A stretch of 64,000 nt of DNA, taken from contig CAMYKS010000005.1 in the NCBI GenBank assembly GCA_947259115.1, positions 410 to 64,409 on the forward strand, written 5' to 3'. Below the pieces are notes generated by a model. That model saw nothing but the letters and a program-made list of their open reading frames with translations, had not been told where the DNA came from and ran no database searches. A program made the position numbers and the translations under genes. Source of the stretch: an uncultured Desulfobulbaceae bacterium (GTDB lineage Bacteria > Desulfobacterota > Desulfobulbia > Desulfobulbales > BM004). Of this stretch, positions 830-21,354 are shown one piece after another; positions within the stretch are counted from its first letter, which is position 1; every line of letters begins with the position of its first letter.

Positions 830-902
830 CACTTTGCACCAGCCTTCGGCAAAACAATAATACCTCAATATCCGGTGTCTCCGGACAAGGGCCCTCAAAC
901 GC

Positions 903-3767: not shown

Positions 3768-3997
3768 CACTCCAGAAATACTCAAGTTATTATTTAGCGT
3801 TTATTTCTTTTCATTAAGATGATAAATACCTAGCCAGGATTAAGGCTCAACGGCCAAGCACAAGAATGTGCATTTCACAACAGCAGGAAAAACATATAGT
3901 TTCATACGGCATACTGCTCTTCAGAAAAACCGTTGAAATCTCCTGTGAACAGAATTTTTCCATGGAAACAATATACCCTTTAGGAAACTAAATACAT

Positions 3998-5767
3998 ATG
4001 CAAGAAACAACTCAAGACAAATCCCAGGCAACCCTCGGCAACGTACGTGACCTGCAATATGCAAAAATCATGATAATTGACGATGAGCCCATCACCCTGG
4101 ATATGGTCCAGATTTATCTCGAGGAGGCAGGTTACAGCAATTTCGTCCTGGTCGAAAAATCCACTGAGGCAATGCAGCAGATCGAAGAGAACGGGCCGGA
4201 CATCCTGCTGCTCGACCTTATGATGCCCGAGGTATCCGGGTATGATATTCTGGCGCAAGTGCGCGAGCATCCTAAGCTGCGATACCTGCCTGTCATCGTC
4301 CTTACAGCGGCAACCGATACTGAGAGCAAACTGCGCGCCCTGGATCTCGGCGCCACGGACTTTCTGGCCAAACCTGTGGACCCCAGTGAATTGAGCCTGC
4401 GTGTGCGCAACACCATAGCGGCCAAGGCATATCTTGACCAGCTCGCCTATTACGATTCCGTCACCAGCCTGCCCAACAGAAAAATGTTTATTGAGCTTTT
4501 TGACAATGCCCTGAAAAAGGCCAAACGATTTACTGAAAAACTGGCCCTGCTGAATATCGAGTTGGATCATTTTGACCGTATTAACGACACCATGGGGATC
4601 AGTGCCGGGGATGAAGTGCTGCGCCAGATCACACACCGCATAGAAAATGCAGTCCGGGATGTTGACCTGCTGGGACCCTCCATTATCAAAGATGACACGC
4701 TTATCGACCTGTTCAGGATTGAAGGTCCCGTTTTTTCGCTGCTCCTGTACAGGATAAGTGAGGCGGGCAACGGCGCCAGTGTTTCGAACCGCTTACTGGA
4801 AGATATCCGCAAGCCTGTATCCGTTGCCGGCAACGATGTGTACGTTACGGCAAGCATCGGCATTACAACATATCCTGACGAGGGTAAAAGCACTGAAGAG
4901 CTGCTGCGCCTGGCTTCAAGTGCCAAGGATTTTGCAAAAAACAAGGGCGGCGACACATTCCAGTTTTCCTCCGCTGAAATCAACGCAACCTATGAAAAGC
5001 GGCACAGTATGGAATCCAGGCTCAGAAAGGCTTTAGCCCGGGAGGAACTCGTGCTGTTCTATCAACCGAAGGTGAATGTTGCCCATAACACCATTGATGG
5101 GGTTGAAGCGCTGGTCCGCTGGGACAGCAGCCAGGGACTTGTTTCGCCCTTGGATTTTATACCAATTGCCGAGGAAACCGGGCTCATTATTCCATTCGGT
5201 GAGTGGATTTTAACCGAAGCCTGCAGCCAGTTAAAAAAATGGCACCAGGAAGGTAAAAGCGGCATCACCATGGCCGTTAACTTATCAGCTAAACAGTTTG
5301 CAGACCCGGATTTTTTTACTACGGTGCAACGGATTGTATCCCAAAGCGGCATTGAGCCCCGGTTTTTGAAACTGGAACTGACCGAAAGCCTGTTGCTGGG
5401 CGACATCGAAAGCAAGATCATTATCCTGCAGGACCTGAAGGACATGGGCCTCAAGATTTCCGTTGATGATTTCGGCACCGGTTACTCTTCACTCAGTTAT
5501 CTCAGCAAGCTTCCGGTGGATGAGTTGAAGATCGATAAATCCTTTATCGATAATGTGTCTGATCAAGCGGACAGCCGTGCCATAGTATCCACCATAATAT
5601 ACCTGGCCCGCAACCTGGGGTTGCAGACCGTTGCCGAAGGCATAGAAACTACGGACCAGCTCAATTACCTGAAACAGGAGGGATGTGACCAGTACCAGGG
5701 ATACCTGTTCAGCAAGCCCGTTTCTAGCTCAGATTTCTCTGAACTTTTCGCTTCATTACAAAAATAA
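3998..5767 (+). CDS. Response regulator, REC - degenerate GGDEF - EAL (likely c-di-GMP phosphodiesterase)
   Basis: REC: IMIIDDEP...LLLDLMMPEVSG...VLTA...DFLAKP. GGDEF position reads FRIEGPVFSLLL (EGPVF instead of GGDEF). EAL signature residues are intact: EALVRW, NLSAKQ, ELTES, DDFGTGYSSL, KIDKSF, EGIET, QGYLFSKP. Confidence 0.9.
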   Translation: MQETTQDKSQATLGNVRDLQYAKIMIIDDEPITLDMVQIYLEEAGYSNFVLVEKSTEAMQQIEENGPDILLLDLMMPEVSGYDILAQVREHPKLRYLPVIVLTAATDTESKLRALDLGATDFLAKPVDPSELSLRVRNTIAAKAYLDQLAYYDSVTSLPNRKMFIELFDNALKKAKRFTEKLALLNIELDHFDRINDTMGISAGDEVLRQITHRIENAVRDVDLLGPSIIKDDTLIDLFRIEGPVFSLLLYRISEAGNGASVSNRLLEDIRKPVSVAGNDVYVTASIGITTYPDEGKSTEELLRLASSAKDFAKNKGGDTFQFSSAEINATYEKRHSMESRLRKALAREELVLFYQPKVNVAHNTIDGVEALVRWDSSQGLVSPLDFIPIAEETGLIIPFGEWILTEACSQLKKWHQEGKSGITMAVNLSAKQFADPDFFTTVQRIVSQSGIEPRFLKLELTESLLLGDIESKIIILQDLKDMGLKISVDDFGTGYSSLSYLSKLPVDELKIDKSFIDNVSDQADSRAIVSTIIYLARNLGLQTVAEGIETTDQLNYLKQEGCDQYQGYLFSKPVSSSDFSELFASLQK

Positions 5768-5785: not shown

Positions 5786-7531
5786 TTGCAAAACATATCA
5801 GCAGGAAACAAAAACGGTCATGCTGTCTTGGCCCCTGTTATCATGTTGGTCGATGATGAAATCACAACCCTGGAGATGATAGAAGCCTATCTTGAGAATG
5901 CAGGCTACAGCGAATTGGTTCTGGTGAGTGATCCCACAGAGGCTATAGACGTCCTTGAAGAAAGAGACCCGGATATTCTCCTGCTCGACCTTATCATGCC
6001 CAGGGTATCAGGTCTTGATATTTTGGCTGCATTAAGAAAAAAACCGAAATTCAAGCATCTGCCCATCATTATTTTAACTGCTTCCTCAGACCCACAGGAT
6101 AAAATCAAGGCCCTGGACCTGGGCGCTACAGATTTTCTGGCCAAGCCGGTGGACCCGACAGAACTGGCATTGCGCATTCGTAATACTGCAGCTGCCAAGT
6201 CTTACCTGGATTACCTCGCATTTTATGACAGCCTCACCGACCTGCCAAACAAGTCCTTGTTCCTTGACAGTTTTGACTGGGCCCTCAGGAAAGCGAAACG
6301 CTACAATGAGAAATTGGCCGTTTTGAATATCTCTTTGGATGATTTTGATAAAATCAATGCAACGGCTGGAAACGCAGCAGCTGACCAAATCCTGCAGCAG
6401 GTTTCCCTCCGAATTAAACAGGCGGTCAGGGATACAGATGTGCTTGGACCATCCATTAAGGTTAAAGCTTTTAAGCAGATGAATCTTTTCCGCGTGGAGG
6501 GCAGCTCTTTTTCCCTGCTTCTGGATCGTATCCACGGTGCTGAAAATGCAGCAATTGTGGCCAACCGTATCATTATGGCAATAAGAGAGCCTTTCAGTGT
6601 TGATGACAAAAATATTCACGTCAGGGCAAGTATCGGCATTGCAAACTATCCGGAAGACAGTGAAGAGCGGGACACATTGATTCATCTTGTCTGGGGTGCC
6701 AGGGATTATATCAGGAAAAAAGGCGGTGACTGTTTCCAGTTTTCAAATAGGTCCATCAACGACACATATGACAAAGAGCGTAATATTGAAAACATGCTGA
6801 GTGACGCCCTTGAAAGAGATGAGTTTGCGCTCAACTATCAGCCAAAGGTTGATATTGACTCCGGCATAATTACAGGAGTTGAAGCCTTGTTGCGCTGGGA
6901 AAGGGATGGGCGTTTCGTGCCGCCCGAAGACTTTGTTTCGGTTGCGGAACGAACGGGATTGATCATTCCCATCGGGGAGTGGATACTGAAGAAGGCGTTC
7001 CGTCAGCTGGCAGATTGGCACAAAGAGGGCATCATGATAGGTATGAGTGTCAATTTATCTGCCAAGCAACTGCAAAGCAGTGAATTCCATGATATTGTTG
7101 AAGATATAGTAAAGCACAGCAGAGTTGATCCTTTATATTTGACACTGGAAATCACCGAATCTCTCTTAATGGAGGACATTGAGCAGACAACAACGCTTCT
7201 GGAACGTTTCAAGGTCATGGGCCTTAAAGTATCCATCGATGATTTCGGCACCGGCTATTCATCATTGAACTATCTCAATCTTCTCCCTGTTGACGAGCTG
7301 AAGATCGATAGGTCCTTTATTAGCGAAATACCAGATAATGCAAAAAGAAATGCCATCGTCTCCACCATAATTTTTCTTTCAGAAAGTCTGGGTATACAGA
7401 CGGTTGCCGAAGGGGTTGAAAATGACAAGCAACTTCAGTTTCTCAAAAAAAATCGCTGTCATCAATACCAGGGGTATCTTTTCAGCCAACCTCTGACAAA
7501 CACTGAACTGTTAAATCTGATGAATAAATAA
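5786..7531 (+). CDS. Response regulator, REC - degenerate GGDEF - EAL (tandem paralog of 3998..5767)
   Basis: Same architecture as the upstream gene. GGDEF position reads FRVEGSSFSLLL. EAL motifs: EALLRW, NLSAKQ, EITES, DDFGTGYSSL, KIDRSF, EGVEN, QGYLFSQP. The start is a TTG preceded by AGGAGAG about 7 nt upstream, so it is less certain than the end. Confidence 0.85.
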   Translation: MQNISAGNKNGHAVLAPVIMLVDDEITTLEMIEAYLENAGYSELVLVSDPTEAIDVLEERDPDILLLDLIMPRVSGLDILAALRKKPKFKHLPIIILTASSDPQDKIKALDLGATDFLAKPVDPTELALRIRNTAAAKSYLDYLAFYDSLTDLPNKSLFLDSFDWALRKAKRYNEKLAVLNISLDDFDKINATAGNAAADQILQQVSLRIKQAVRDTDVLGPSIKVKAFKQMNLFRVEGSSFSLLLDRIHGAENAAIVANRIIMAIREPFSVDDKNIHVRASIGIANYPEDSEERDTLIHLVWGARDYIRKKGGDCFQFSNRSINDTYDKERNIENMLSDALERDEFALNYQPKVDIDSGIITGVEALLRWERDGRFVPPEDFVSVAERTGLIIPIGEWILKKAFRQLADWHKEGIMIGMSVNLSAKQLQSSEFHDIVEDIVKHSRVDPLYLTLEITESLLMEDIEQTTTLLERFKVMGLKVSIDDFGTGYSSLNYLNLLPVDELKIDRSFISEIPDNAKRNAIVSTIIFLSESLGIQTVAEGVENDKQLQFLKKNRCHQYQGYLFSQPLTNTELLNLMNK

Positions 7532-7588: not shown

Positions 7589-7931
7589 ATCGTGCAAATC
7601 TCCATTGGTCTGCCCGACCTCAACAACACTGCCGAATTTCCCCTTGAACTGTTTCACGTTGATATTGGCTGCTTTGCTTTGCTGGTCGGGCCGCTGCAAA
7701 GCCCTGATAAAGCAGAAGCCCTGGCCAATCTCATTGTCGAAGGAAATAAAAAAACCGCTGCAACTTAGTACCTGGAAAATCACCTTTACGGCAAGTATAG
7801 GAATTACCGTTTACCTCTCCAGCGCTACCGATCACGTAATGTTATGGCGCCAGGCATCAGGCTCTAAGAATCATGTAAAGAAGAATAATGGCGATAATTA
7901 CATTGTATACTCCCCTGAGAGCAGCGTTTAG
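7589..7931 (+). pseudogene. Frameshifted, internally deleted remnant of a GGDEF-type domain (decayed third paralog)
   Basis: One frame gives ...GLPDLNNTAEFPLELFHVDIGCFALLVGPLQSPDKAEALANLIVEGNKKTAAT-stop. Compare LTDLPNK... and LFRVEGSSFSLLL in the neighbours. After a +1 shift near 7765 the next frame gives ITFTASIGITVY...KKNNGDNYIVYSPE-stop (compare VTASIGITTYP...AKNKGGDTFQFSS). No REC or EAL part is present. Confidence 0.5.
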
Positions 7932-7957: not shown

Positions 7958-10036
7958 TCAATTTTTCTGCATGATCCCAAAATCCTCGAGGATCGTGCCT
8001 TTGGCCCATTTCAGTTTCAACATGGAGATGTTGTAGTTTGATATTGACCTGATATATGTGCGGTAGGCGAAGTAGTAATCATCCTGGGCGTCAAGAAGGG
8101 AATGGATATTTACCTGCCTGATCTCAAAACGGGATTTCTCCCTTGATAAAAGCCTGTGATTGGCTTGCCGCGAATTTCCCGTGGCCTCGATTTCTTTCGC
8201 CGACTGTTCAATTTCAGTGACTGAAGAATTTATCTGGAAGTTGATTTCCTCAGATATCTTGGCCAATGCCGCCTGTGACTGCTTTTCTTCATATACGACT
8301 TTCAGATAATCCGCTTCAGCTTTTCTCCCTCCGATGGGCCAGACAAACTCGAGACCAACCGCCCAGCTGTTATCATCACTGAAATATGTATCTTTAACAT
8401 CATCACTGAAATCTTCCCCCAGTGCATTGAAAGCATACATGGCCCTGGCATCAAGGGTCGGCAGCCTCATGTGCCTGGCAAGTTTCCTGTTTATTTCTGC
8501 TGCACTTACCCTGTTTTGGGCGATGCTATACTCCGGGCGCTTCAAAAGGGCTTCTTGCAGCAAGGCTGCCTTGTCCAATTCAACCTCTTTGCTGGACAAT
8601 CTCTCAGTCGGAATGATGGCAACATCCGCCCCGGCTGCCCCGGAGGCAAAGCCCAACAAGAGCTTTAACTGGTCCATTGCCAGTTTATAATCTGTGTTCG
8701 CTTTGATAAATATTGCTTTACGATCCTGCACGGAGGCAAGGGCCCGGTCGACATCCAGCAGGTCGGCAAGACCGCTTTCCTTGCGAAGGAGAAGTCTCTG
8801 GTAAATATCTTCCGCATCCTGCAGGTACTTGCGGCTGATACTTATCTGCTTGGCATAATAGACCAATCGCCAGTAATAGGTTCCCACTTCCCGCATGACG
8901 TTGGCCATGGTTTTGCGATATTCCATGCCGGAAACATTCAGGTTCAGGTCCGCAAGTTCCATGGCAGATCGATTAGTCGGATCGCCAAATTCCTTCAACA
9001 ATGCCTGCCGTAACTCCAGGGTAAGACGCGAGGTGTATTGTGGGTTAGGTATTACGAGATCACTGCTGCTATCCAGGTGGTCAACATCAAGGACGGAAAG
9101 CGATAATATGCCGCCGGTGGGCAACGGCTGTTTGATACCGGCCCGTGCGCCCCATCTATCTTCCACAAAACTGTCCGATTCCGTATCTCCCTCCCCAAGG
9201 TCAAGCTTGCTCTGTATGGGCCTGTCTGTTCTGGAAATATTACTTTCTGCAAAGAGAGAGGGGTCATAAACCGTGTGGGTTGATTTTTTTTCCTCTTCTG
9301 CAATTGGAGAAAGAAACGCTGCAACCTTGATATCAGGATTCTGATCAACAGCCACCCTGATCGCATCTTCAAGGCTTAATTTTATAGAGTTTCCGCCTGT
9401 TGGCAAAACATACACTTCAGTCATATCATCTTCATAAAGGCTTATACCTGCCTTTTGACCTGATACTTCTGCTGCAGCGGCCTCCTGCTGCTGAGACGCA
9501 GACACCACCTTCTCTGTTGCAACTTCTGCTGCATGCATTTGCTCTGCAGGTGCTGCAGCTTCTGTCTCAGGCCCCGTTTCCCGGCCCGGCTCTGCTGTCT
9601 GCAACATTTCAACGGCTGCATTATTAACTTTGTGGGGATCGGTCCTGACCTGTATAAAGTTGTACCCCCTGACTGCCAGCTTTTCCGTAATGGTTAGCAG
9701 ATCATCCCTGTTGGCTGCCCGTCCGAGACGCAGAGTATAGTAGCCGCTGTCTGTCTTGTAGACAAAAGCGTCCGGCTGCAGATCGCCGGGCAGGGCATCA
9801 TAAGCCCGCAGGGCTGCTGACTCGTAAACGTATGTATTAATCTGCAGGGAATACAGAACCGTCGGCAGTTCCGACCTGTCTGTCACATTGCTCTTTACTT
9901 CAGGCTGCCCGTATACACCGGCAAAACCAATTCCGGAATGGGCCAAAAGAAAAGCGGTCAGCAGGCAGTAAAAGAAAAAACGGGGGAATAACAGAGGTTT
10001 TTGCGACCTGCAGTTGCAGGTATTAATAAATTGCAT
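7958..10036 (-). CDS. TolC-family outer membrane channel with an N-terminal SPOR-like (peptidoglycan-binding) domain
   Basis: N-terminal signal-like hydrophobic region. Residues ~60-135, YSLQINTYVYESAALRAYDALPGDLQPDAFVYKTDSGYYTLRLGRAANRDDLLTITEKLAVRGYNFIQVRTD, fit the SPOR beta-alpha-beta-beta pattern (compare FtsN/DamX SPOR). An Ala/Glu linker follows, then ~470 aa typical of outer membrane efflux proteins (LSLEDAIRVAVDQNPDIKVA..., two coiled repeat halves). Confidence 0.75.
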   Translation of the reverse strand: MQFINTCNCRSQKPLLFPRFFFYCLLTAFLLAHSGIGFAGVYGQPEVKSNVTDRSELPTVLYSLQINTYVYESAALRAYDALPGDLQPDAFVYKTDSGYYTLRLGRAANRDDLLTITEKLAVRGYNFIQVRTDPHKVNNAAVEMLQTAEPGRETGPETEAAAPAEQMHAAEVATEKVVSASQQQEAAAAEVSGQKAGISLYEDDMTEVYVLPTGGNSIKLSLEDAIRVAVDQNPDIKVAAFLSPIAEEEKKSTHTVYDPSLFAESNISRTDRPIQSKLDLGEGDTESDSFVEDRWGARAGIKQPLPTGGILSLSVLDVDHLDSSSDLVIPNPQYTSRLTLELRQALLKEFGDPTNRSAMELADLNLNVSGMEYRKTMANVMREVGTYYWRLVYYAKQISISRKYLQDAEDIYQRLLLRKESGLADLLDVDRALASVQDRKAIFIKANTDYKLAMDQLKLLLGFASGAAGADVAIIPTERLSSKEVELDKAALLQEALLKRPEYSIAQNRVSAAEINRKLARHMRLPTLDARAMYAFNALGEDFSDDVKDTYFSDDNSWAVGLEFVWPIGGRKAEADYLKVVYEEKQSQAALAKISEEINFQINSSVTEIEQSAKEIEATGNSRQANHRLLSREKSRFEIRQVNIHSLLDAQDDYYFAYRTYIRSISNYNISMLKLKWAKGTILEDFGIMQKN

Positions 10037-10077
10037 TTTTGATACCCTACGTTTAGGAATGCCTTAAATTTTCTGTG

Positions 10078-10908
10078 TTACTCTTCTGACTTTTCCACAT
10101 CGGGAAAGGAAACGGTTACCCTCTCGCCGGCCGGCCGCTTGCCGGGGTTTGCTGCTATTACACTGATACGGAGTGTATTTGCTGCGGAATCCGCCACTGA
10201 CGCAATGTGGTCGATCTTTCCCTGCACCTCTTCTCCATCGGCAAATTTTATTACTGCTTGCTGGGTAACGGCCAATGATTTGGCATTGGATACCGGAACG
10301 GCAATATCGATCAGGAGCTCATTGATGTCAACTATGCGGATAACAGGCGCAAGGGCCTGTATGGATTCGCCTTTTTCAATTTTCACCTCTTCGACAATCC
10401 CATTGACAGGGCTCCTGATGTGAAGGTTGTTTAAAGCTGTTTTAAATTCCTTATGCTTCAACTGGTCCTGGGCGTGTTCAAACTCGGCCAGCTTTACCTC
10501 AAGCAGGGCGGTTTCGGCTGCCAGCCTTGCATGGTCAACCTCCCAGTCCGTAACAGCCCCGTTGCGATGGGCTTCCTCCATTTTCAGCAGGTCTTCTCTT
10601 TTCTGCAGGAATTCTGCCTGGCCTATCTTAATAATTGTCGTGTCATTGGCCTTGGCAGTTAACAACTGGTATTGAACCATTTCCACCTGCCCTTCCAAGC
10701 TGGCAAGTAGATCACCTACTGAGACGTGATGCCCTTCACTAACCGTCAATTTATCAACCTTGCCGTGCTGCACAAATGAAAGGCTGATATCCGCGCTGGG
10801 CTTGGTTATGGCTTCAACATCCAGCCCATGGGACAGGTGGGGTATGAAAAGAATGAACAACAGGGGGAGGGAAAAAATGGCAAGGTTTTTAAATGGGGCA
10901 GGCACCAT
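10078..10908 (-). CDS. Membrane-fusion protein / periplasmic adaptor (HlyD/RND-adaptor family)
   Basis: Start moved to the internal Met (MVPAPFKNLAIFSLPLLFILF), which has AAGGAA upstream. Contains a biotinyl/lipoyl-like hairpin (VSEGHHVSVGDLLASLE ... IRSPVNGIVEEVKIEKGESI), a coiled-coil and a beta-barrel. Lies 41 nt upstream of the TolC-like gene. Confidence 0.8.
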   Translation of the reverse strand: MVPAPFKNLAIFSLPLLFILFIPHLSHGLDVEAITKPSADISLSFVQHGKVDKLTVSEGHHVSVGDLLASLEGQVEMVQYQLLTAKANDTTIIKIGQAEFLQKREDLLKMEEAHRNGAVTDWEVDHARLAAETALLEVKLAEFEHAQDQLKHKEFKTALNNLHIRSPVNGIVEEVKIEKGESIQALAPVIRIVDINELLIDIAVPVSNAKSLAVTQQAVIKFADGEEVQGKIDHIASVADSAANTLRISVIAANPGKRPAGERVTVSFPDVEKSEE

Positions 10909-11175
10909 ATTATATTCCTTATTATATTGTTTTAATTGAAAATAGAGGACGATAACACTTTGAATCATTGAATAATTATGAGGATTTTTTCTGATTCCGA
11001 CCAATTTACAGAAATCTGATTTGCAGCCGGAAATTCATGGATCATGCAGCCAGATCAGCACATAAACACATTAAATATATAGTATTTTTGAAATAATTCC
11101 AACCATTAATATATAAATATTTCCTGCATGCTGCACTTTTCTGTCAGAAAAGGATGAATCTGATCAGCAAACGGG

Positions 11176-13167
11176 CTATTCGGATTTGCCTGAAAACGCC
11201 AGAGCGCTCTCCAGGGATTCATCAAGCTGCAGAAGCTCCTTGCGCATGCGGTAGTGTTTCCTTTCCAGGGAGCGCTGGGCCCGGCGCATTAAAAACCTGC
11301 AGAAGAGCAGATGAAGTTCACTGTTTCCACGGGCTGCCAGGCGCAGCAACATTCCGCCAAAGGTCTTTGCGAAAGGTTGCAATATCTCGTCATCCAGGGA
11401 TATATATGCTTCATGCGTGCCGGGATCGCCCTGGCGACCGCAGCGCCCGAAAAGCTGGCGGTCAATGCGCCTGGCGCTGTGCGGTTCCGTGCAAAGCACC
11501 TGCAGCCCACCCATATCTCTCACACCGGGTCCGAGCCTGATGTCCGTTCCCCGGCCGGCCATGTTGGTGGCAACGGTTATCTGTCCTTTGTCCCCTGCCC
11601 GGGCAATAACGGCGGCCTCATCTTTATCCTGCCGGGCATTCAGGACCTTATACTCCAGGCCGTTTTCGCTCAACAGACGGCTGATTTTCTCTGAAACGGT
11701 GACCGTTGGCGTGCCAATAAGCACGGGCCTGCCTTTACGGTTAAGTTCTTTAGCCCGCTGCACAACGGCGGACAATTTATTCTTCTCAGTCCTAAAATAG
11801 CGTTCGGGCAGTCCCCGGCGGATTAACGGCTTATTGGTCGGGATCCGGACAAATTTGAGGCCGTAAACCGTCCATAGTTCCCTAGCCACCTCACGTGCTG
11901 TGCCGGTCATTCCTGCCAGCATCTGATAACGCCTGAAAAAGCGCTGATAGCTTATCCTGGCAAGAGTTTCTTTCTGCGTAGAAATGGCGCAGTTCTCCTT
12001 GCACTCGATAAGCTGATGCAAACCCCTTTCCCATGAGCGGTCTGCCATGCGCCGCCCAGTGTATTCATCGATTATCTCAACCTTGTTGTCTTGCACCAGG
12101 TACTCTTTGTCTCTGTGAAAATGATGCAGAGCGACTAGTGCCATGTTTACCATTGCTTCACGCCGGCGCGAGGAAACCCAGAAGCCGCCGGCCGGGTTTG
12201 CCAGTGAGTCCAGGAAATCGCGACCTGCCTCGGTTAACTCAATGCTTTTGGCAGCCCTGTCGGAGCTGTAATGTTCAATGCTCTTGAGCTGTTTTGCAAA
12301 AGCCAGGGCCTGGACATAGGCCTTTTTTTCAAAGCTGCTGTCGCCTGCTCCGGAAATGATTAACGGGGTCCTGGCCTCATCTATCAGAACGGAGTCGGCC
12401 TCATCGATAATGGCAAAACAGAGCCCTCGCAGGATGAGGTCCTTCAAAGAACCGGCCGGGCCATAAAGTCTCTGCAACGAATAAGCAATGGGCCCGGGTT
12501 TCCGTCTGAGGCGCAGATGATCCTTCAGGTAATCAAAGACAATCTCTTTATTTGTGCAGTACACCACATCCTGCTGATACACTTTCCTCCGTTCAGCAGG
12601 AGACATATCATGGCGGATAACTCCAACACTTATACCCAGGGCTTCATAAATGGGCCCCATCCATGTTGCATCCCGCTCGGCAAGGTAATCGTTGACCGTA
12701 ATTATATGTACAGGTATGCCGGCAAGAGCGGCTGTACTGGCCGGCAATGTTGCGGTCAATGTCTTGCCCTCCCCGGTTTCCATCTCTGCAACCACACCAT
12801 TTAAGAGGGCATAGCCCCCGATGAGCTGCACATCATAATGCCTGGTGCCAAGGGTTCGTTCAGCCTGTTCGCTCACCAGAGCAAAGGCGCGGGCCGTGTT
12901 TGCAAGAGATATTCCTTCCTGCCGGAACTTTCTTCGCAACTCTGCGGCTTCGGTTTCCAATTGTCTCCCTTCGAATCTCCGGAATGCCGGGCTGAACTTA
13001 TTCACTTCTTCGATAATGGCATGAAAGCGCTCAAAGCTGGCGCCATAGCGGCTGAAAAGGTAGCCGGGATAATCATGCAGCAGGCTTTCAAATTGACTGC
13101 GAACCTCCGGGCTCCGCTCCGGATAAAAGCCGTATTTCTTTTCAAATAACATGGAATTACTAGACAT
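11176..13167 (-). CDS. SecA-like ATPase (motor domains retained, C-terminal third absent)
   Basis: Diagnostic SecA motifs: HYDVQLIGGYALLNGVVAEMETGEGKTLTATLPA, VHIITVNDYLAERDATWMGPIYEALGISVG, AIIDEADSVLIDEARTPLIISG, MLAGMTGTA, VATNMAGRGTDIRLG, GGLQVLCTEPHSARRIDRQLFGRCGRQGDPGTHEAYISLDDE. Only ~75 aa follow the last motif. The start is set at ATG 13167, which overlaps the upstream stop (ATGTCTAG); ATG 13152 is an alternative. Confidence 0.85.
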   Translation of the reverse strand: MSSNSMLFEKKYGFYPERSPEVRSQFESLLHDYPGYLFSRYGASFERFHAIIEEVNKFSPAFRRFEGRQLETEAAELRRKFRQEGISLANTARAFALVSEQAERTLGTRHYDVQLIGGYALLNGVVAEMETGEGKTLTATLPASTAALAGIPVHIITVNDYLAERDATWMGPIYEALGISVGVIRHDMSPAERRKVYQQDVVYCTNKEIVFDYLKDHLRLRRKPGPIAYSLQRLYGPAGSLKDLILRGLCFAIIDEADSVLIDEARTPLIISGAGDSSFEKKAYVQALAFAKQLKSIEHYSSDRAAKSIELTEAGRDFLDSLANPAGGFWVSSRRREAMVNMALVALHHFHRDKEYLVQDNKVEIIDEYTGRRMADRSWERGLHQLIECKENCAISTQKETLARISYQRFFRRYQMLAGMTGTAREVARELWTVYGLKFVRIPTNKPLIRRGLPERYFRTEKNKLSAVVQRAKELNRKGRPVLIGTPTVTVSEKISRLLSENGLEYKVLNARQDKDEAAVIARAGDKGQITVATNMAGRGTDIRLGPGVRDMGGLQVLCTEPHSARRIDRQLFGRCGRQGDPGTHEAYISLDDEILQPFAKTFGGMLLRLAARGNSELHLLFCRFLMRRAQRSLERKHYRMRKELLQLDESLESALAFSGKSE

Positions 13168-15307
13168 TAAAACGCTTGAGGAATAGTTGACGAACACTGC
13201 GATACCATTGAAATGCAAGGGGTTCATACCCATGGTCGAAGCGCACGTACACCCGGCTGCCGATATAGAACTTCTCCAATGGTTCGCCCATGGCTAAATC
13301 AAACTGGAAGTACCGTTCGAATGTTTTACTGCCGCTCCTGTCCAGGGGATCAACAGCGATACTGCCGCCGCCGGCAACCCCAAGGGCTGTACTTGGCAGG
13401 TGGTCAACCGCACCGGGAATTTCCCGCTCGACCTTTGCCGTATAGACCACATGCGGTTTCACTGAAAAACGTAATTCGACGCCCTCTGTTTTGCCCCGTA
13501 TCAAATCAATGTTTCTCTGCGGAACTACTACACGTATGATTGTTGCATCCTGTTTAAGGACATATCCCAGCAACTCTCCCTGTTCAATAAACCTGCCTTT
13601 CAGGTCAGCCGCCTGCGGCAGCACAAACATACCCTCTGCGGGACTTGTGATCAGCATCTCAGCAAGCCTTTCTTCGGCGCGGGACAGTCTCTCCCGGATG
13701 CCTATAATCTCTTCCTGCAGGATGGACGCCTGAACTTTATCCGTGGCGTATGCGGCATTATAGCGCAGCTCGTATTCCTTCAGCCGGGACTGGAAAATCT
13801 TTATCTGTGTGGACAGAAAGGGATCCCGGCACTCAATGAGAACTTCATTTTTTGCAACGTTACCATTTGCTTGCGCATGGATTTCTGCAACAATTCCGGC
13901 TGTGTTGGAGCGAACTTGCGCATCCTCGGGTACCCAGACAACCCCCTCGGTACGGGAATGATATGGGAACGGCAGCAGGAAGAGGAGCAGCAGCAGGCAG
14001 GTTATTACCGAGACAATAACCAGAATTATCCTGTTTCTGTTGGCCTGGTGAACAGGTGCGCTCAGCAGGGTCTGTATTTTTTTGTAAAGCGGCAGGATGA
14101 TGAACGAAAACCCTCCCCAAAGAGCCAAGAGTACTCCGAATATATAAAATTTACCGGCCACAAAGAGTATGATGGCCCCATAGATGAAAATCCGGTAGCA
14201 AAAGGAGGTAATTCCGTAAAAGAAGAGCCAGAAACGCTCCCCTGGGGCCATGTTGGGAGTTTCTATCCTGCTGTTCCCAAAGACATATCTGTTAATCAGA
14301 TAGCCGAGATATTGCATGCTGCGCTGGGCCAGGTTCGGGATATTCAGTAAATCGGCAAGAATATAATAGCCGTCATATCTGAGTAAAGGGTTGCCGTTGA
14401 AAAGCAGCGTGGAAACCCCGCCGATAAGAATGATGTTGTAGGCTGCTGCCCGCAGAAGACCGGGCTCCATGGAGAGCCAGATAAACATGGCAAATGACGC
14501 AAGCAGCATTTCAACAGCTATGCCGGCAGCGCCCACCGTTAGCCGCTGACGCCTCCGGGGAAAAACAGCTGATGAAGAGGCATCCACATAGGGAATCGGC
14601 ATAAAAACCAGAAACATGATCCCCATTTCATGCACTTCCCCGCCCCACCTCTTGACAGCATATCCGTGGCTTAATTCATGCAGGCCTTTGACGAAGGGAT
14701 ATATGATCAGCAATATGATAAGGTTGTCTTTAGCAAACACCCTGTCGGCCAGGTTTCTCGTCAGTTCATCCCAGTTGATCCCGGCCTGGACAAGCGCTGT
14801 CCCGATAATAAATACACAGAGCAGCAGGCCCGGCAAGGTATACACATACTTGACGTAACGCACTGTTCTTTCCAGAAACAGGTCGGGGTCAAGCAGAGGC
14901 AAACGGAAATAAAACGGGTTGGAAAATTTTACCTTCCTGGAGCTTTTTTCAGATTTTCGACTGCGCAACAGAAGCTCTCTGGTGTCGGGTTCCACATCGC
15001 ACAACAACACATCAGCCTCATAGAGGCGGCTGAGAAGCTGCACCATTTCCACCTGCGTGGGCGCATCATCGCTATACTCTTGCGAGACTTTCTCCCACAA
15101 CTTCTGGACGCTGTGCCTGCCGTTCATCATGCCGATCACCCTGTAGGCAATGGGGGTGAACCGAAAGACCTTGCCGGTGAGGTGGTCCTGCAGAACATAC
15201 CATAACTCGCCCCGGTATTGATGCCGGTGAATCTGTGCATGTACCTTGATCCGGGGTTTCAGGTGTGCGACTCTATACCATGAGGGACTGAATATCGTGT
15301 CTTGCAT
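13160..15307 (-). CDS. Polytopic membrane protein: M50/site-2-protease core fused to a C-terminal HlyD-type periplasmic adaptor domain
   Basis: HExxH in a TM helix (GLHELSHGYAVKRWGGEVHEMG) and the second S2P motif FNGNPLLRYDGYYILAD. About 8 hydrophobic helices lie between aa 165 and 445. The C-terminal ~270 aa have a lipoyl-like hairpin, coiled-coil and barrel (VRSNTAGIVAEIHAQANGNVAKNEVL...ITSPAEGMFV). The N-terminal ~110 aa are soluble. Confidence 0.8.
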   Translation of the reverse strand: MQDTIFSPSWYRVAHLKPRIKVHAQIHRHQYRGELWYVLQDHLTGKVFRFTPIAYRVIGMMNGRHSVQKLWEKVSQEYSDDAPTQVEMVQLLSRLYEADVLLCDVEPDTRELLLRSRKSEKSSRKVKFSNPFYFRLPLLDPDLFLERTVRYVKYVYTLPGLLLCVFIIGTALVQAGINWDELTRNLADRVFAKDNLIILLIIYPFVKGLHELSHGYAVKRWGGEVHEMGIMFLVFMPIPYVDASSSAVFPRRRQRLTVGAAGIAVEMLLASFAMFIWLSMEPGLLRAAAYNIILIGGVSTLLFNGNPLLRYDGYYILADLLNIPNLAQRSMQYLGYLINRYVFGNSRIETPNMAPGERFWLFFYGITSFCYRIFIYGAIILFVAGKFYIFGVLLALWGGFSFIILPLYKKIQTLLSAPVHQANRNRIILVIVSVITCLLLLLFLLPFPYHSRTEGVVWVPEDAQVRSNTAGIVAEIHAQANGNVAKNEVLIECRDPFLSTQIKIFQSRLKEYELRYNAAYATDKVQASILQEEIIGIRERLSRAEERLAEMLITSPAEGMFVLPQAADLKGRFIEQGELLGYVLKQDATIIRVVVPQRNIDLIRGKTEGVELRFSVKPHVVYTAKVEREIPGAVDHLPSTALGVAGGGSIAVDPLDRSGSKTFERYFQFDLAMGEPLEKFYIGSRVYVRFDHGYEPLAFQWYRSVRQLFLKRFNV

Positions 15308-15314
15308 CTTTGCT

Positions 15315-17183
15315 CTACGATATTTTTACCCAGAAACGGATGCGCATCCAATCAATAAGATCATGCATCCAGATCCAGATCAATTTACGGCGGGCCACAT
15401 GAATCTTTCCGTAGCCCTGCATTCCCGGCCTGAGCTTCTTTGAGTCCTGCAGGATACTGCCCTCCACAAGAAAGAAATTACTGCCCTCCCTGGTGGTTGT
15501 CACAGGTGTTATTTTTTCAACCGTAAAAGCATACGGACTGCCGGGCATGGCATTTAAAACAAGTTCTCCCTTCTGCCCAACTGCAACCTGATCAATGTCC
15601 CCCTCCGCAACTTCGAGCATGACCCTATAAGAGTCAAGCGGGGCAATCTGAAACAGGGTCTGCCCCCGCTCTATGGGAGCGCCGATGGATTGGCTCCAGT
15701 CGCCGCTGATAATTATGCCGTCAAAGGGTACGCTGATTTTGGCCCGGGCGATCTGCTCGTCCAGCAATGACACCTCGGATTCAGCCTGGCTCATCTGTTC
15801 CCGTATTATGTTGGACTCTGCGATCTCGTTCTTTGCCAGGGACTGGTTATATTCCAGGGCCAGCTGTTTTCGCTGGCTCGCCGACTTCAGACGCTTCAGC
15901 AGCAGGTCACGTGTATCCAGGCTGGCCAGAACTTGATCCTTGCTGACGATATCCCCAGCCCGGGCAGGGGCCTCATTGAGGTAACCGTCAAAAGGAGCAA
16001 TGACAGAACGCTGCACAGTGCCTTCCAGAACACTCGTTGCCGAAACCCGGTAATCGCCGCTGGCAACTGCAAAAAAAAGCAGCAGAGCGGCAAGGCAGCA
16101 GAACCCTAACTTCATAGCCGAATTTCCCGGACCGCAAAGCATGCGAAACCGCTCCGAGAGATGAAGCGCTGCTTTCCTGTAAAGGGGCAGATCATTCAAC
16201 TTTTTTGCTTTGAGGGTCGGACCGAGCAGGGCGGCAACCGCTTCACAGAGCAGAACCGTATTATTATCAAACGACTTCTCCGATATCCTTTCAAATGTAA
16301 GGGCCCCATAGCCTTCGTTGTCAACACCAAGAAAGGGGACCGTCAGAATGGACCGGGACCCGTGCATATTCTGCAGGACTCCATGGCAGCGTTGTATTGC
16401 ATCATCCTGTCCAGCAGCAGGGGGATACAGTATTGTTGTGCTCTGGTCAATGCTTTCATCCATGGCTTCCCCGATGGAACCGACCAGGTTCATTTTCCCG
16501 GCAAACTGGGCACTATGGGAAATGGCATCCACTTTGACCTGATTTTTTGCGCTGAATCCGATGCTGACACGTTCACACCCTAGACGGGTGGCAAGCTCGT
16601 TAACTGCAACTATTGCTGCGTCTTTAAACCTCTTCTCCTGGAGCACCGGAGCCATAACATCGAAAACCGTCATTAGGCGCTGTTGCAGCGTGTCGCCGGT
16701 CGCCCCCCCCTCAACACCATTGGTTTTATGTAAAAAAAGGCTCTCAAGCCATGCCGTACCCCACTGAATCTGGCCCATGGACATTTGCAGTTCCCGGTCA
16801 GAGGCTATCCGCAACTGAAAAACCACAACTCCCTGACGTTTTGTGCCGGCAGTGAACGGGCACCCGAGAAAAACAGATTTGCCTACATCTGCGCTGCAGT
16901 TTTTTATACCGGCTTCAAGCGAGGCAAAACATTTACCTTCCGACAGAACACGCAGAACAATTTCATCAAACCCGTCCAAGGGCTGGGGACTTTCCGGCCA
17001 GGAGGCGGCACGGGTGGGCCGGGAACCGGCTTTTGGGTCCAGATACACTGCAGCGCACTGGAGATCATGCATCATACTGCATTGAAGATTCAACCAGTTG
17101 CAGCAGAACTCCTCTTCCTTCCCAGAAGCATGAAGTTTTTGCCACATTGTCTTATTTGCAAATGAAAAATCGGCTGTATTCAT
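15315..17183 (-). CDS. GAF-like cytoplasmic domain(s) - TM - HlyD-family periplasmic adaptor fusion
   Basis: The N-terminal ~340 aa are soluble with GAF-like segments (my recognition, not verified). A single TM follows (LGFCCLAALLLFFAVASG). The HlyD-type adaptor comes next: VIAPFDGYLNEAPARAGDIVSKDQVLASLD, a coiled-coil, ISVPFDGIIISGDW, then a barrel. Its stop lies 7 nt from the start of the M50 fusion gene. Confidence 0.7.
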   Translation of the reverse strand: MNTADFSFANKTMWQKLHASGKEEEFCCNWLNLQCSMMHDLQCAAVYLDPKAGSRPTRAASWPESPQPLDGFDEIVLRVLSEGKCFASLEAGIKNCSADVGKSVFLGCPFTAGTKRQGVVVFQLRIASDRELQMSMGQIQWGTAWLESLFLHKTNGVEGGATGDTLQQRLMTVFDVMAPVLQEKRFKDAAIVAVNELATRLGCERVSIGFSAKNQVKVDAISHSAQFAGKMNLVGSIGEAMDESIDQSTTILYPPAAGQDDAIQRCHGVLQNMHGSRSILTVPFLGVDNEGYGALTFERISEKSFDNNTVLLCEAVAALLGPTLKAKKLNDLPLYRKAALHLSERFRMLCGPGNSAMKLGFCCLAALLLFFAVASGDYRVSATSVLEGTVQRSVIAPFDGYLNEAPARAGDIVSKDQVLASLDTRDLLLKRLKSASQRKQLALEYNQSLAKNEIAESNIIREQMSQAESEVSLLDEQIARAKISVPFDGIIISGDWSQSIGAPIERGQTLFQIAPLDSYRVMLEVAEGDIDQVAVGQKGELVLNAMPGSPYAFTVEKITPVTTTREGSNFFLVEGSILQDSKKLRPGMQGYGKIHVARRKLIWIWMHDLIDWMRIRFWVKIS

Positions 17184-17548
17184 CTTAAAAAAATTTTGCC
17201 CTGTAGGATTTTTCTATGACAGGCATAAGCAGTATTGTTGCAGGCCCAATAATTTTTTACTTCCAGTTCTGTAGATTCTGCTAGCGACACTCCCCTGGAA
17301 TCCATCCCCATATAACTTTTGGGGGAATATCACAAAGTTACAACAAAAAACAGCTTTTTGCTGCAATTCTGCAAAAACACTGCAAATTTTCTTATTTTCC
17401 CGGCACATAATATTGTCTAATCAAGCACTCATCATTAAAGAATATTCTTCATTTTTTCCATATACTCACTCCAACAGACATTTTTTTAATTTTTAATTAC
17501 ACAATTATATCAAATAGATAAATACAATTTATAGAAAAACCCTACAAA

Positions 17549-17564
17549 TGGCACACCCTTTGCT
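17549..17564 (+). promoter_or_regulatory. Sigma-54 (-24/-12) promoter
   Basis: TGGCACACCCTTTGCT matches the TGGCAC-N5-TTGCW consensus at every specified position. It lies 56 nt upstream of the ATG at 17620. Confidence 0.75.
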
Positions 17565-17619
17565 GAATACGCTATGGCAGTAGGGTTTACCTATCCAAAA
17601 CTTATAACTTAAAGAAGAG

Positions 17620-18438
17620 ATGAAAAACATGGATCTAAACAAAAAAACCATAGCAGTCTTGGGCTCATTGCTGATGAGCCTCGTTTTCGTTGTGCATGCC
17701 CACTCTGCAACTGTGCAGCGCTCAAATTTTATTGTGGCAAATCTTTCCTGCACTTCCTGCCTGGCGACTATAGAGACTGAGTTAAAAGGTATACCGGGCA
17801 CCCTGGGTATGGACGCCGACCTTCGCTCCGGCAGAGTAACCGTTGACCACCTGTCCTCTCTGGATTACGAAGAGATCGCTAAAACCATCAGCAATCTGGG
17901 CTATCCTGCCACTGCAGACTGGACTGCAACGGTCCCTGAACAGTCTACAAAGAAATTTGCCCCGCAAAGCCAATACCGCTCCGGTTGCTCCAGCGGAGGC
18001 TGCGGTAATGCAGGCGGCGACGGAGCAGGCCCGACGGCTTGGAAATCTCCCCCTGCCACCGGTACGGTCAACCGGACAACCATGCAGGTCAACAAACTTT
18101 CCTGTACGTCCTGCCTGAACAATATTGCTGCTGAACTGAGTAAACTCTCTGAAACTTATGGCATGAACGGCTATTTAAGCAGGGGAATTGTCCTGGTTGA
18201 CCATGAAGACTCACTGGAGAATAACAGGATCGCTGCAATCATCTCTGACCTCGGATATCCGGCAAGGGTTGTTTCAACCAACGAAATCCCGGCCCAAAAA
18301 GCTTTTACAAAAAACCCGCAGAGAGGTTCAGTAAAACAGCGAGGCAGGGGTTGCGGCTCCAAAGGCCCATGCAATGCAACATCAGCATCATGGCAGAAAT
18401 TATACAATCGTTACTTTACCCAGACAAATGCTAAATAG
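17620..18438 (+). CDS. Secreted protein with two HMA-like (heavy-metal-associated) domains and Cys-rich linkers
   Basis: Signal peptide MKNMDLNKKTIAVLGSLLMSLVFVVHAHSA. Two ~65-aa repeats each carry SCTSC (CxxC) at the HMA metal-loop position (VANLSCTSCLATIETELKGIPG; VNKLSCTSCLNNIAAELSKL), followed by ...GYPA. Linkers CSSGGCGNAGGDG and GRGCGSKGPCNA. Confidence 0.7.
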   Translation: MKNMDLNKKTIAVLGSLLMSLVFVVHAHSATVQRSNFIVANLSCTSCLATIETELKGIPGTLGMDADLRSGRVTVDHLSSLDYEEIAKTISNLGYPATADWTATVPEQSTKKFAPQSQYRSGCSSGGCGNAGGDGAGPTAWKSPPATGTVNRTTMQVNKLSCTSCLNNIAAELSKLSETYGMNGYLSRGIVLVDHEDSLENNRIAAIISDLGYPARVVSTNEIPAQKAFTKNPQRGSVKQRGRGCGSKGPCNATSASWQKLYNRYFTQTNAK

Positions 18439-18472
18439 ATATACAGCTCATAACCGATGGAGGTTTTTTAAG

Positions 18473-18964
18473 ATGGTAACTGTGAGAAAAAATTCATTTA
18501 AAATTACAATTTTTCTATTGTCCCTGGCAGCTTTAATTTTTAGTGGCTGTTCCAGTTCAACGGCCAGTAAAAGTGCTTTAACCGGCGGTCTCATCACACC
18601 GACCAACGGCAAGCTTGAAATCCCGGTTGCCGGTATCAGTGACGGTAAAGCCCATCATTTCCAGGTCAAGTCGGAGGACGGCTCCATGGTCACCTTTTTT
18701 GTACTCAAAAGTGCTGACGGTGTTCTCCGTGCTGCCATTGACGCCTGCGATGTCTGTTACCGCTCGGGTCTCGGATATTACCAGGAAGGGGACAAGATGG
18801 TCTGCAAGAACTGCGGTCAGAAATTTGCCTCCAACAAGATCAATGTCATCAAGGGCGGCTGTAACCCGGCCCCGCTGAACAGGGTTGTTGATGGTGACAC
18901 GTTGGTGATCCAGATGCGGGACATCAACATGAACAGCTGGTACATGAAATACCGCCAGTCTTAA
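18473..18964 (+). CDS. Lipoprotein with DUF2318-like Cys4 domain
   Basis: Start moved to MVTVRKNSFKITIFLLSLAALIFSGCSSS (lipobox FSGC, GGAGG upstream). Contains AAIDACDVCYRSGLGYYQEGDKMVCKNCGQKF...IKGGCNPAPL (CxxC...CxxC), which I recognise as the DUF2318-type pattern. Confidence 0.6.
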   Translation: MVTVRKNSFKITIFLLSLAALIFSGCSSSTASKSALTGGLITPTNGKLEIPVAGISDGKAHHFQVKSEDGSMVTFFVLKSADGVLRAAIDACDVCYRSGLGYYQEGDKMVCKNCGQKFASNKINVIKGGCNPAPLNRVVDGDTLVIQMRDINMNSWYMKYRQS

Positions 18965-19012
18965 TAGGATGCCTGAATAACAGACCGTTATAACGACATA
19001 AGGATCAGACTA

Positions 19013-19441
19013 ATGACCTACAATTTAGATAAATATAGGGATAAACGGGAAAAGGTGCTCGGGGTGAAAAAACGGGGCATCAGCTTCGGCACCATGGCCG
19101 GAATAGTCTCGCTGGTAATTATCCTTGGCTTAGGTGTTGTGGTGGTACCCAAGTCGATTGCCTACTTCAACACCAGGCACCTGGATGATGTCATTTATAA
19201 ACTGCAGAATGCCGAAAGCTGGACGCCGGAAACAATCACCGCCATCCAGCAGCTGGCAGGGGTTAAAAATGTTGAAACGGACAACAACAGCACAAGGATC
19301 ATTATTACCTTTGATAAATCAATAACCAATACCTATGACATTAACGCCTTCTTCAAACAGAGGGACATCCAGATAGTTCTGCTCAACCAGGTCGGTCATG
19401 CCCACAGGCTGCAGATCATGGAAAAAGAATCCAAGTTTTAA
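19013..19441 (+). CDS. Small membrane-anchored protein of unknown function (possible Cys-less HMA-like fold)
   Basis: One N-terminal TM (MAGIVSLVIILGLGVVVV). The C-terminal part, AGVKNVETDNNSTRIIITFDKSITNTYDINAFF, resembles a ferredoxin-like beta-alpha-beta domain without a CxxC. Packed tightly in the operon. Confidence 0.45.
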   Translation: MTYNLDKYRDKREKVLGVKKRGISFGTMAGIVSLVIILGLGVVVVPKSIAYFNTRHLDDVIYKLQNAESWTPETITAIQQLAGVKNVETDNNSTRIIITFDKSITNTYDINAFFKQRDIQIVLLNQVGHAHRLQIMEKESKF

Positions 19442-19451
19442 GGATAACACG

Positions 19452-20609: not shown

Positions 20610-20640
20610 TGATTTTTATTCAATAAAATAGGATTGCACC

Positions 20641-21354
20641 ATGACAAACATGACCCATAATTCTGCTGTAGAAACAAACGTACAGCACCTTATTGAAATC
20701 CAGAATATCGGCAAGGACTACCAGGAAGGCGAGAGCACGGTTCAGGCCATAAGAGAGATGAGTTTTTTTATAGATGACGGTGAATTTGTCTCCATAATGG
20801 GGCAGTCAGGCTCTGGAAAATCCACCCTGCTTTCCATCCTGGGCGGGCTCAATCATCCGACCCGGGGACGAATACTTCTCGATACACTGGATATATACGA
20901 ACTCTCCAGCGAACAACGGGCTGATTTGAGAAGTGAATATATCGGGGTTATCTTTCAGTCCTTTCAGCTGATACCTTACCTGACTGTATTGGAAAACGTA
21001 AAACTGCCCATGGCGATTACCGGCAAAAAAGCCAAGGTGCAGGACAAGATGGCCCGCGATGTCCTCGACCGCGTTGGCCTGGCTAACAAGGCAGACCGGT
21101 TGCCTGACCAGCTGTCAGGCGGGGAACAGGAAAGGGTTGCCATTGCCAGGGCCATTGTCAATAAACCGCCAATTCTCCTAGCCGATGAGCCCACCGGCAG
21201 TCTGGACAGTAAGACTGCAGACGAAATCATGGCCCTGCTCAAAGAACTCAACAGTGAAGGCCAGACCATTATCATGGTTACCCACAACCCTGAAGCATGT
21301 AAACATACATCGAGAATCATTCAAGTCAGGGATGGTTCCTGTCATACGAATTAA
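20641..21354 (+). CDS. ABC transporter ATP-binding protein (MacB/LolD-like)
   Basis: Walker A GQSGSGKST, Q-loop, signature LSGGEQERVAIARA, Walker B ILLADEPTGSLD, H-loop VTHN. Confidence 0.9.
   Translation: MTNMTHNSAVETNVQHLIEIQNIGKDYQEGESTVQAIREMSFFIDDGEFVSIMGQSGSGKSTLLSILGGLNHPTRGRILLDTLDIYELSSEQRADLRSEYIGVIFQSFQLIPYLTVLENVKLPMAITGKKAKVQDKMARDVLDRVGLANKADRLPDQLSGGEQERVAIARAIVNKPPILLADEPTGSLDSKTADEIMALLKELNSEGQTIIMVTHNPEACKHTSRIIQVRDGSCHTN

Follow-up and report, generated by a model that had tools for sequence, protein, structure and literature searches.

Secondary SecA_DEAD domain proteins that lack the wing/scaffold domain were described by Kamneva, Poudel & Ward (PLoS One 2015 10:e0129066; PMC4452313). 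The corresponding loci also encode GAF, Peptidase_M50 and HlyD/Biotin_lipoyl proteins and sometimes OEP, while an ATP-binding cassette (ABC) transporter is missing. It was proposed that the SecA-like protein is the ATPase and the M50 protein the membrane pore, horizontal transfer was inferred, and the biological role was stated to be completely unknown. In the same work, the clade was placed next to actinobacterial SecA2, and complete genomes were found to carry the secondary SecA besides canonical SecA. RTX proteins, cargo, PqqD and DUF3467 are not mentioned there (PMC4452313). In the literature searched, the term for these proteins was otherwise encountered in a single further paper, which has the same first author. 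SecA_DEAD and preprotein cross-linking domains without scaffold and wing domains have also been found inside giant proteins of Omnitrophota and Actinobacteria, where a role in the export of these very proteins is suspected (West-Roberts et al. 2023, doi 10.1101/2023.11.21.568195). Here, we analyzed a five-gene cluster built around a SecA-like ATPase in a stretch of 64,000 nucleotides (nt) from an uncultured Desulfobulbaceae bacterium (assembly GCA_947259115.1, contig CAMYKS010000005.1; hereafter, the window), to which an earlier, sequence-only reading had drawn attention. The cluster has the composition of the 2015 module, namely, SecA_DEAD and SecA_PP_bind domains without wing/scaffold and the gene order GAF, M50, SecA and membrane fusion protein (MFP). 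The cluster is thus a member of this module, and we consider it probable that it is an ABC-independent, type-I-like trans-envelope secretion machine. More tentatively, and with considerable doubt, we suggest that such machines could represent a distinct type of secretion system, in which giant proteins (3,000 to >18,000 amino acids (aa)) would be exported in one step, powered by the SecA paralogue, through the adaptor/M50 complex and TolC, with Trp motifs conserved at their C-termini serving for selection, read by a RiPP recognition element (RRE)-like domain, and with processing by the M50 site (RiPP, ribosomally synthesized and post-translationally modified peptide).

The SecA-like ATPase matches the Pfam families SecA_DEAD (E = 1e-106), SecA_PP_bind (1e-25) and P-loop_SecA (1e-52). 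Its alignment to B. subtilis SecA spans 18–607, so that the last ~180 SecA residues have no counterpart, and the match to the 200-position SecA_SW profile is confined to positions 11–37. The protein keeps nucleotide-binding domain (NBD) 1, the preprotein cross-linking domain and NBD2, with conserved Walker A, DEAD box, TGTA and NBD2 motifs, and is devoid of the wing domain, the two-helix finger and the C-terminal tail. Lengths in the homologue alignment range from 661 to 687 aa. In a scan of 1.84 billion representative sequences, the best 150 of the 50%-identity representatives are nearly all 640–690 aa long and align to the very C-terminus. Thus, the short SecA is a coherent family and not a truncated gene. 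Three features are specific to this family: a conserved N-terminal F-Y-P-E motif (residues 14–17), a 19-residue insertion in NBD1 (residues 221–239) missing in canonical SecA, and an A-F-S-G…E motif conserved at the C-terminus (residues 656–663). All three are candidates for sites at which the membrane partners dock. The protein scores below the cutoffs of the housekeeping SecA models (NF009538, 633.8 versus 814; TIGR00963, 627.4 versus 800) and of four SecA2 models (TIGR03714, TIGR04221, TIGR04397 and NF012136). A housekeeping SecA identity can be dismissed, given the lost domains and the scores under every NCBIfam SecA cutoff. In one related locus (L070), a canonical secA lies on the same contig, 6 kb from the module, and its first 539 residues outscore the entire SecA-like protein on the SecA model. 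Along with the complete genomes of the 2015 study, this locus lends indirect support to a canonical SecA being encoded elsewhere in the genome of the window. No second SecA was found in the 64-kb window.

The protein encoded directly upstream of the ATPase is a fusion in which Pfam recognizes PqqD, Peptidase_M50 and HlyD_3. The N-terminal PqqD/RRE-type domain is an addition to the domains listed in the sequence-only reading. The Peptidase_M50 score (25.0) is slightly below the cutoff (27.2). Peptidases of family M50 have an HExxH motif in a transmembrane (TM) helix and a downstream NxxPxxxxDG zinc-ligand motif, and the fusion contains both (H210/E211/H214 and N304-N306-P307...D312-G313, respectively), invariant across 37 homologues. 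Judged by these motifs, the M50 site appears catalytically intact. Among the NCBIfam models, the fusion matches daptide_HExxH (NF041824; E = 6.5e-45) with a score of 153.9 against a cutoff of 300, and the YydH/LiaK model (NF058609) with 31.3 against 225. Homologues of the fusion account for >7,700 of the 8,000 scored database candidates and are mostly exactly 714–716 aa long. In the AlphaFold2 model (predicted local distance difference test, 80), the N-terminal domain has the beta3-alpha3 arrangement typical of RRE/PqqD. Behind it come a helical membrane core that includes a beta-hairpin of the site-2 protease type, a final TM helix and a C-terminal adaptor carrying an alpha-hairpin of ~27+26 residues. 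The best structural matches of the adaptor in Foldseek are MexA/MacA/AcrA (E ~1e-10).

The remaining three proteins are likewise assigned by profile searches. The GAF-adaptor matches GAF (2e-5), HlyD_3 (3e-17) and HlyD_D23 (9e-13) in Pfam. The stand-alone MFP matches HlyD_D23 (9e-17), HlyD_3 (2e-15) and Biotin_lipoyl_2, as well as RND_mfp of NCBIfam (1e-29) above the model cutoff. The outer membrane factor contains two OEP repeats (Pfam, 4e-34). In having both an MFP and a TolC-family outer membrane factor, the cluster resembles the classical type I secretion system (T1SS). All domain calls of the sequence-only reading are thereby borne out by Pfam and NCBIfam, save that SPOR (PF05036) on the OEP protein, at residues ~61–128, is sub-threshold (18.8 bits versus a cutoff of 21, E = 0.002). 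Residues 1–220 of this protein (window 9368–10036, minus strand) comprise the weak SPOR-like segment followed by an Ala/Glu-rich linker. The extension is missing from the OEPs of other loci, in which tblastn matches begin at residue ~197–220, and is retained in the 693-aa orthologue of a syntenic relative (L086). According to hydropathy profiles, the GAF protein has a single TM segment. The M50 fusion has about seven, with the RRE domain on the cytoplasmic side and the adaptor in the periplasm. The SecA-like protein has none and is soluble; MFP and OEP each begin with an N-terminal signal or anchor segment.

Conservation of the cluster was assessed in 80 genome loci that encode the M50 fusion and belong to Desulfobacterota, Gamma- and Betaproteobacteria, Rhodospirillaceae, Nitrospirota, Omnitrophota, Planctomycetota, Bacteroidota, Acidobacteriota and Deferribacteres. 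The fusion gene is directly preceded by the GAF-adaptor gene in 64 of 66 informative loci and directly followed by the SecA-like gene in 67 of 69, and this order of the core triad is conserved in at least eight phyla. Thus, as the sequence-only reading had anticipated for a dedicated system, the triad is conserved as a unit across phyla. A homologous MFP gene follows the SecA-like gene in 45 of the 80 loci, and OEP genes accompany the module in 20. In loci L007 and L051, the MFP-OEP pair remains with the triad despite an inserted gene on the opposite strand. Any ABC ATPase is present in the 10-kb flanks of just 4 of the 80 loci and is never adjacent. This rules out an ABC partner always lying beside the module, a situation that the earlier reading had named as incompatible with its proposal. 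No FtsX homologue was detected near the module in the 80 loci.

Several further genes recur around the module. A gene for a putative metallopeptidase of ~339 aa (DUF4344) with a signal peptide is located on the opposite strand between the SecA-like and MFP genes in L003, L004, L007, L022, L028 and L051. It recurs in the clade nearest to the window that has cargo genes and is missing from the window. SapC-family genes adjoin the module in four loci (L006, 16729–17472; L030; L048, 15170–16030; L079, 170–1183). Elsewhere, SapC is a known component of operons for type-I secretion of S-layers. One genome (CP070682.1, metagenome-assembled genome (MAG) bin676, 2.16 Mb; loci L011 and L012) has two M50-adaptor fusion genes, next to which the GAF and SecA-like queries gave poor matches or none; these loci may represent a divergent variant of the module.

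Giant genes also neighbour the module. In 19 of 38 fully flanked loci, the region immediately upstream of the module holds the end of a same-strand open reading frame (ORF) of at least 1300 aa, versus 0 of 34 downstream flanks. These ORFs usually exceed the 10-kb flank. Among the called upstream neighbours, one from a Geopsychrobacteraceae MAG measures 6,659 aa and contains HemolysinCabind repeats, and one in another genome reaches 18,499 aa. Repeats of the RTX, Calx-beta, Laminin_G, PKD and RHS types are found in the visible parts of the giant proteins. In 20 loci, a DUF3467 gene of ~105 aa separates the giant gene from the GAF gene. Conversely, when metagenome loci were anchored on DUF3467, the GAF gene came next in 37 of 42, and the whole triad was present in 10 of 12 long loci; in the two loci without the triad (L096 and L158), an alternative engine was looked for and none was found. 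Seven of the DUF3467-anchored loci have a complete upstream flank of 10 kb, and in each of them it is filled by the upstream ORF (at least 3,286 aa). The triad-less locus L096 contains a second DUF3467 within a 433-aa protein, followed by a radical-SAM protein (701–3817, plus strand).

The C-termini of the giant proteins fall into four classes: (a) S/P-W-L-x-D/E-F-L/V-x-x-G ... I-x-V-x-I-acidic, (b) DDEW[LM][IV]x[ILV] at the extreme C-terminus, (c) AGLxGWG ... RRFLRW and (d) ... FDFLE[IL]DD. The classes were drawn from L003, L004, L007, L024, L026, L046, L052, L061, L065, L077, L083, L084 and L088–L163. A hidden Markov model (HMM) of class (a) tails recovered one further upstream protein outside the training set. 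These Trp/Phe-acidic motifs could be sorting signals. A protein search with the C-terminal region of a cargo protein returned only fragments of <700 aa. Many giant upstream proteins have a matrixin/metzincin-like HExxHxxGxxH domain ~60–120 residues before the C-terminus (seen in L004, L007, L024, L026, L048, L051 and L052; proteins P0121–P0146), which may be a self-processing or effector domain. As to N-termini, the proteins at L050 579–2957 (plus strand), L060 2086–7188 (minus strand) and L071 16182–18296 (plus strand), as well as P0193, begin with a basic stretch followed by L-E-x-L-E-x-R-x-L-L-S-A. The statement of the sequence-only reading that no substrate gene lies inside the cluster extends to the whole window: the tail HMM gave no match (best E = 0.37), tblastn with DUF3467 and the giant proteins was negative, the 17184–17619 region included, a LEPRxLLSA regular expression found nothing, and there is no ORF of >954 aa. 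The 78%-identical, syntenic relative L086 likewise has no DUF3467 gene, giant ORF or tail match.

In the window, the five minus-strand ORFs are all present and co-directional at the positions given by the sequence-only reading (Table 1), and its description of their junctions proved accurate. The GAF-adaptor stop codon (TAG, 15315–15317) is separated by 7 nt from the ATG of the M50 fusion at 15307. The stop of the fusion overlaps the start of the SecA-like gene, both lying inside ATGTCTAG. For the latter gene, the start at 13167 is preferred over 13233, in agreement with homologues called at 663 aa. The AT-rich gap between the triad and the MFP/OEP pair, put at ~270 nt, measures 267 nt and has a GC content of 30.7%, versus 50.5% for the cluster. 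It contains no terminator-like site, and a promoter-like match there is only at chance level. Gene content and domain searches also agree with the earlier reading that no engine of the ABC, resistance-nodulation-division (RND) or major facilitator superfamily (MFS) type is encoded within the cluster.

Table 1. Features of the SecA-like cluster and of its intergenic regions, in window coordinates.
Feature	Position	Strand	Description
Outer-membrane factor, OEP/TolC family	7958..10036	-	692 aa; ~200-aa N-terminal extension
Stand-alone periplasmic adaptor (MFP)	10078..10908	-	276 aa; N-terminal signal/anchor
AT-rich intergenic gap between core triad and MFP/OEP pair	10909..11175	-	267 nt
SecA-like ATPase	11176..13167	-	663 aa; NBD1, preprotein cross-linking domain, NBD2 and initial part of scaffold helix
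PqqD/RRE-like, M50 core and periplasmic adaptor fusion	13160..15307	-	715 aa; core with ~7 TM
GAF-TM-adaptor	15315..17183	-	622 aa; cytoplasmic N-region with GAF, 1 TM (~356–374), periplasmic HlyD-type adaptor
Divergent AT-rich intergenic region 5' of cluster	17184..17619	.	436 nt, GC 0.333; presumed promoter region

In the proposed type-I-like machine, the SecA-like protein, having lost the parts that engage SecY, would dock on the cytoplasmic face of a complex of the GAF-TM-adaptor and the RRE-M50-adaptor. It would spend ATP on threading an unfolded polypeptide through the inner-membrane hetero-oligomer formed by these two anchored adaptors. The two anchored adaptor domains and the free MFP would build a tunnel across the periplasm, with the OEP/TolC trimer as its docking partner. 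The RRE-like domain might bind the cargo signal, cleavage or release of the cargo may fall to the M50 site, and the GAF domain might gate or regulate the system. Judging from the related loci, the likely cargo class would be giant surface proteins of the RTX/Calx-beta/PKD/RHS type with C-terminal Trp-containing motifs. The conduit suggested by the sequence-only reading, with a SecA-type motor feeding an M50-containing complex and TolC, is strengthened because giant RTX-type genes adjoin homologous clusters; we infer its mechanism, and the window holds no cargo gene.

A number of observations weigh against the type-I-like machine. None of the five proteins is known to form a protein-conducting channel in the inner membrane. 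The SecA-like protein has no two-helix finger, the element thought to push polypeptides in canonical SecA. Neither the window nor 19 of the 38 fully flanked loci have a giant gene beside the module. A MacB-type ABC pump is encoded 2.2 kb from the cluster, both in the window and in L086. The N-termini of the cargo proteins were not recovered, the giant ORFs exceeding the flanks or being broken by Ns and frameshifts. Experimental work on any member of the module was not found in the literature searched. Finally, in M. extorquens, the genes of the module except the GAF gene are barely expressed in exponential phase (PMC4452313).

We considered four other explanations, each of which is less well supported than the type-I-like machine. 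The first, which we regard as rather unlikely, is a two-step, accessory-Sec pathway: a SecA2-type helper would bring huge preproteins to SecYEG, and the adaptor/M50/OEP proteins would handle the periplasmic intermediate. That SecA2 paralogues can be devoted to particular cargo is well established. RTX proteins are classically exported unfolded in a single step by T1SS, which weighs against this pathway. The position of the clade next to actinobacterial SecA2 (PMC4452313) favors the two-step pathway, as does the fact that cargo N-termini were not recovered, with three large proteins from related loci beginning with a LEPRxLLSA-type motif. However, the SecA-like protein is devoid of the elements with which canonical SecA works at SecY (two-helix finger, wing domain and C-tail), its gene is translationally coupled to that of the M50 fusion, and no secY2 or asp families occur in the neighbourhoods of the 80 loci.

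An unlikely alternative is that the region comprises two unrelated units, with MFP and OEP (7958–10908) serving a conventional pump, such as the MacB-type one, and the triad acting separately at the inner membrane. The MacB-type FtsX permease and ABC ATPase are encoded at 19398–21354 on the opposite strand, 2.2 kb from the cluster, in an operon without its own MFP that recurs syntenically in L086, the 78%-identical relative; moreover, the 267-nt AT-rich gap parts MFP/OEP from the triad. The wider survey speaks for a single unit. MFP follows the SecA-like gene in 45 loci and OEP accompanies it in 20, in distant phyla, and in L007 and L051 the pair stays with the triad in spite of the inserted gene. 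FtsX homologues (0/80) and ABC ATPases (4/80) are no regular companions of the module. As for the operon itself (17620–21354, plus strand), it is divergent from the cluster and metal-related, encoding an HMA-domain protein, an FtrD-like protein, a small membrane protein, the FtsX permease and the ABC ATPase. It has neither an MFP nor an outer membrane factor of its own and, apart from L086, is absent from the other 80 loci.

Maturation and export of a RiPP-like peptide appears improbable. Here, the RRE-M50 protein would cut the leader of a small peptide that exits via the adaptors and TolC, and the SecA-like protein would be an unfoldase or energiser. Such a system would account for the PqqD/RRE domain with its RRE-like fold in the AlphaFold2 model, for the likeness of the fusion to the daptide metalloprotease (6.5e-45) and the YydH/LiaK family and for the window being without a cargo gene. 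The daptide score is, however, far under its cutoff (153.9 versus 300). No family of precursor peptides or modification enzymes recurs in the 80 loci, where giant RTX-type proteins and DUF3467 are the recurrent neighbours. A last, very improbable explanation is that the GAF sensor and the M50 site carry out regulated intramembrane proteolysis of a membrane-anchored substrate, for instance, sortase- or LapG-like release of a giant adhesin tail, without any translocon. In its favor, signalling or processing is the typical role of M50 proteases, the catalytic site is invariant, a GAF domain is present, the cargo tails are conserved and c-di-GMP enzymes abound in the flanks of the cluster in the window. 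It leaves unexplained, however, the three adaptor domains, the dedicated OEP and the SecA-type ATPase, whose preprotein clamp is intact.

On its other side, the cluster is flanked by regulatory genes, all on the plus strand. They encode a hybrid histidine kinase with Hpt (903–3767) and two tandem paralogous response regulators with GGDEF and EAL domains (3998–5767 and 5786–7531). L086 is flanked by the same kinase/GGDEF-EAL set and has an extra response regulator-GGDEF gene upstream of the GAF gene. A link between c-di-GMP and adhesin secretion is possible. Between the EAL and OEP genes, a 108-aa ORF (7605–7931) resembles, by eye, the C-terminal part of GGDEF (…ASIGITVY…) and may be a gene remnant.

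The novelty implied by the sequence-only reading is overstated, because the module and essentially the same hypothesis have been in print since 2015 (PMC4452313). It was right insofar as no experimental characterization was found. New in the present analysis are the RRE-like N-terminal domain, the M50 motifs, the MexA/MacA-like adaptor, the loss of wing domain, two-helix finger and C-tail from the SecA-like protein, DUF3467, the cargo association and the tail motifs; a link between the module and a cargo was not found in the literature searched. The cargo association and the motifs make the module described in 2015 directly testable. If the type-I-like machine is real, a large and taxonomically diverse set of Gram-negative bacteria owns an exporter driven by a remodelled SecA and not by ABC, RND or MFS proteins. 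This would widen the design space of tripartite systems, add a second evolutionary use of the SecA motor and provide a testable export route for giant RTX-type proteins, whose secretion has likewise been brought up as a question in recent surveys of giant genes. Should it further prove to be a distinct secretion-system type, it would give a concrete answer to how the very largest proteins of bacteria are exported.

Among described systems, the cluster is close to the loci of the 2015 study, for example, that of M. extorquens AM1 (META1p2402–2399), which has the GAF/HlyD, M50/HlyD, SecA_DEAD and HlyD/Biotin_lipoyl MFP genes in the same order and no ABC transporter. Compared with these loci, the OEP of the window bears the ~200-aa N-terminal SPOR-like extension, and the taxonomic range of the module is here widened to Omnitrophota, Bacteroidota, Acidobacteriota and Deferribacteres. 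With classical T1SS (HlyB-HlyD-TolC, or LapBCE in the case of giant RTX adhesins), the cluster shares an alpha-hairpin adaptor and OEP/TolC, and the RTX-repeat giants neighbouring the related loci have conserved C-terminal regions as well. Unlike T1SS, it has no HlyB-type ABC transporter, its ATPase is a SecA paralogue, and there are two membrane-anchored adaptors in addition to the free one, one of them fused to M50 with an RRE-like domain. Accessory SecA2 proteins (mycobacterial SecA2 and SecA2-SecY2 of Gram-positives) are similar in being a diverged second SecA beside the housekeeping one, and the SecA-like protein is plausibly dedicated to special, very large cargo. Nevertheless, SecA2 keeps the scaffold and two-helix finger and acts at SecY/SecY2, whereas the SecA-like protein ends ~55 residues into the scaffold region and is coupled to adaptor proteins and TolC. 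The RRE-M50 proteases of RiPP systems (daptide, NF041824; YydH/LiaK, NF058609) also have a PqqD/RRE-like domain before an HExxH intramembrane protease. The protein of the window differs in being fused to a periplasmic adaptor, in scoring below the family cutoffs and in having no RiPP precursor or tailoring genes nearby. A functional analogue is found in the peptidase-containing ABC exporters (PCATs), in which the signal is recognised and cut at the exporter. Finally, in contrast to the giant proteins with internal SecA domains reported by West-Roberts et al., the SecA-like ATPase is here a separate 663-aa protein encoded in an adaptor operon and not part of a giant protein.

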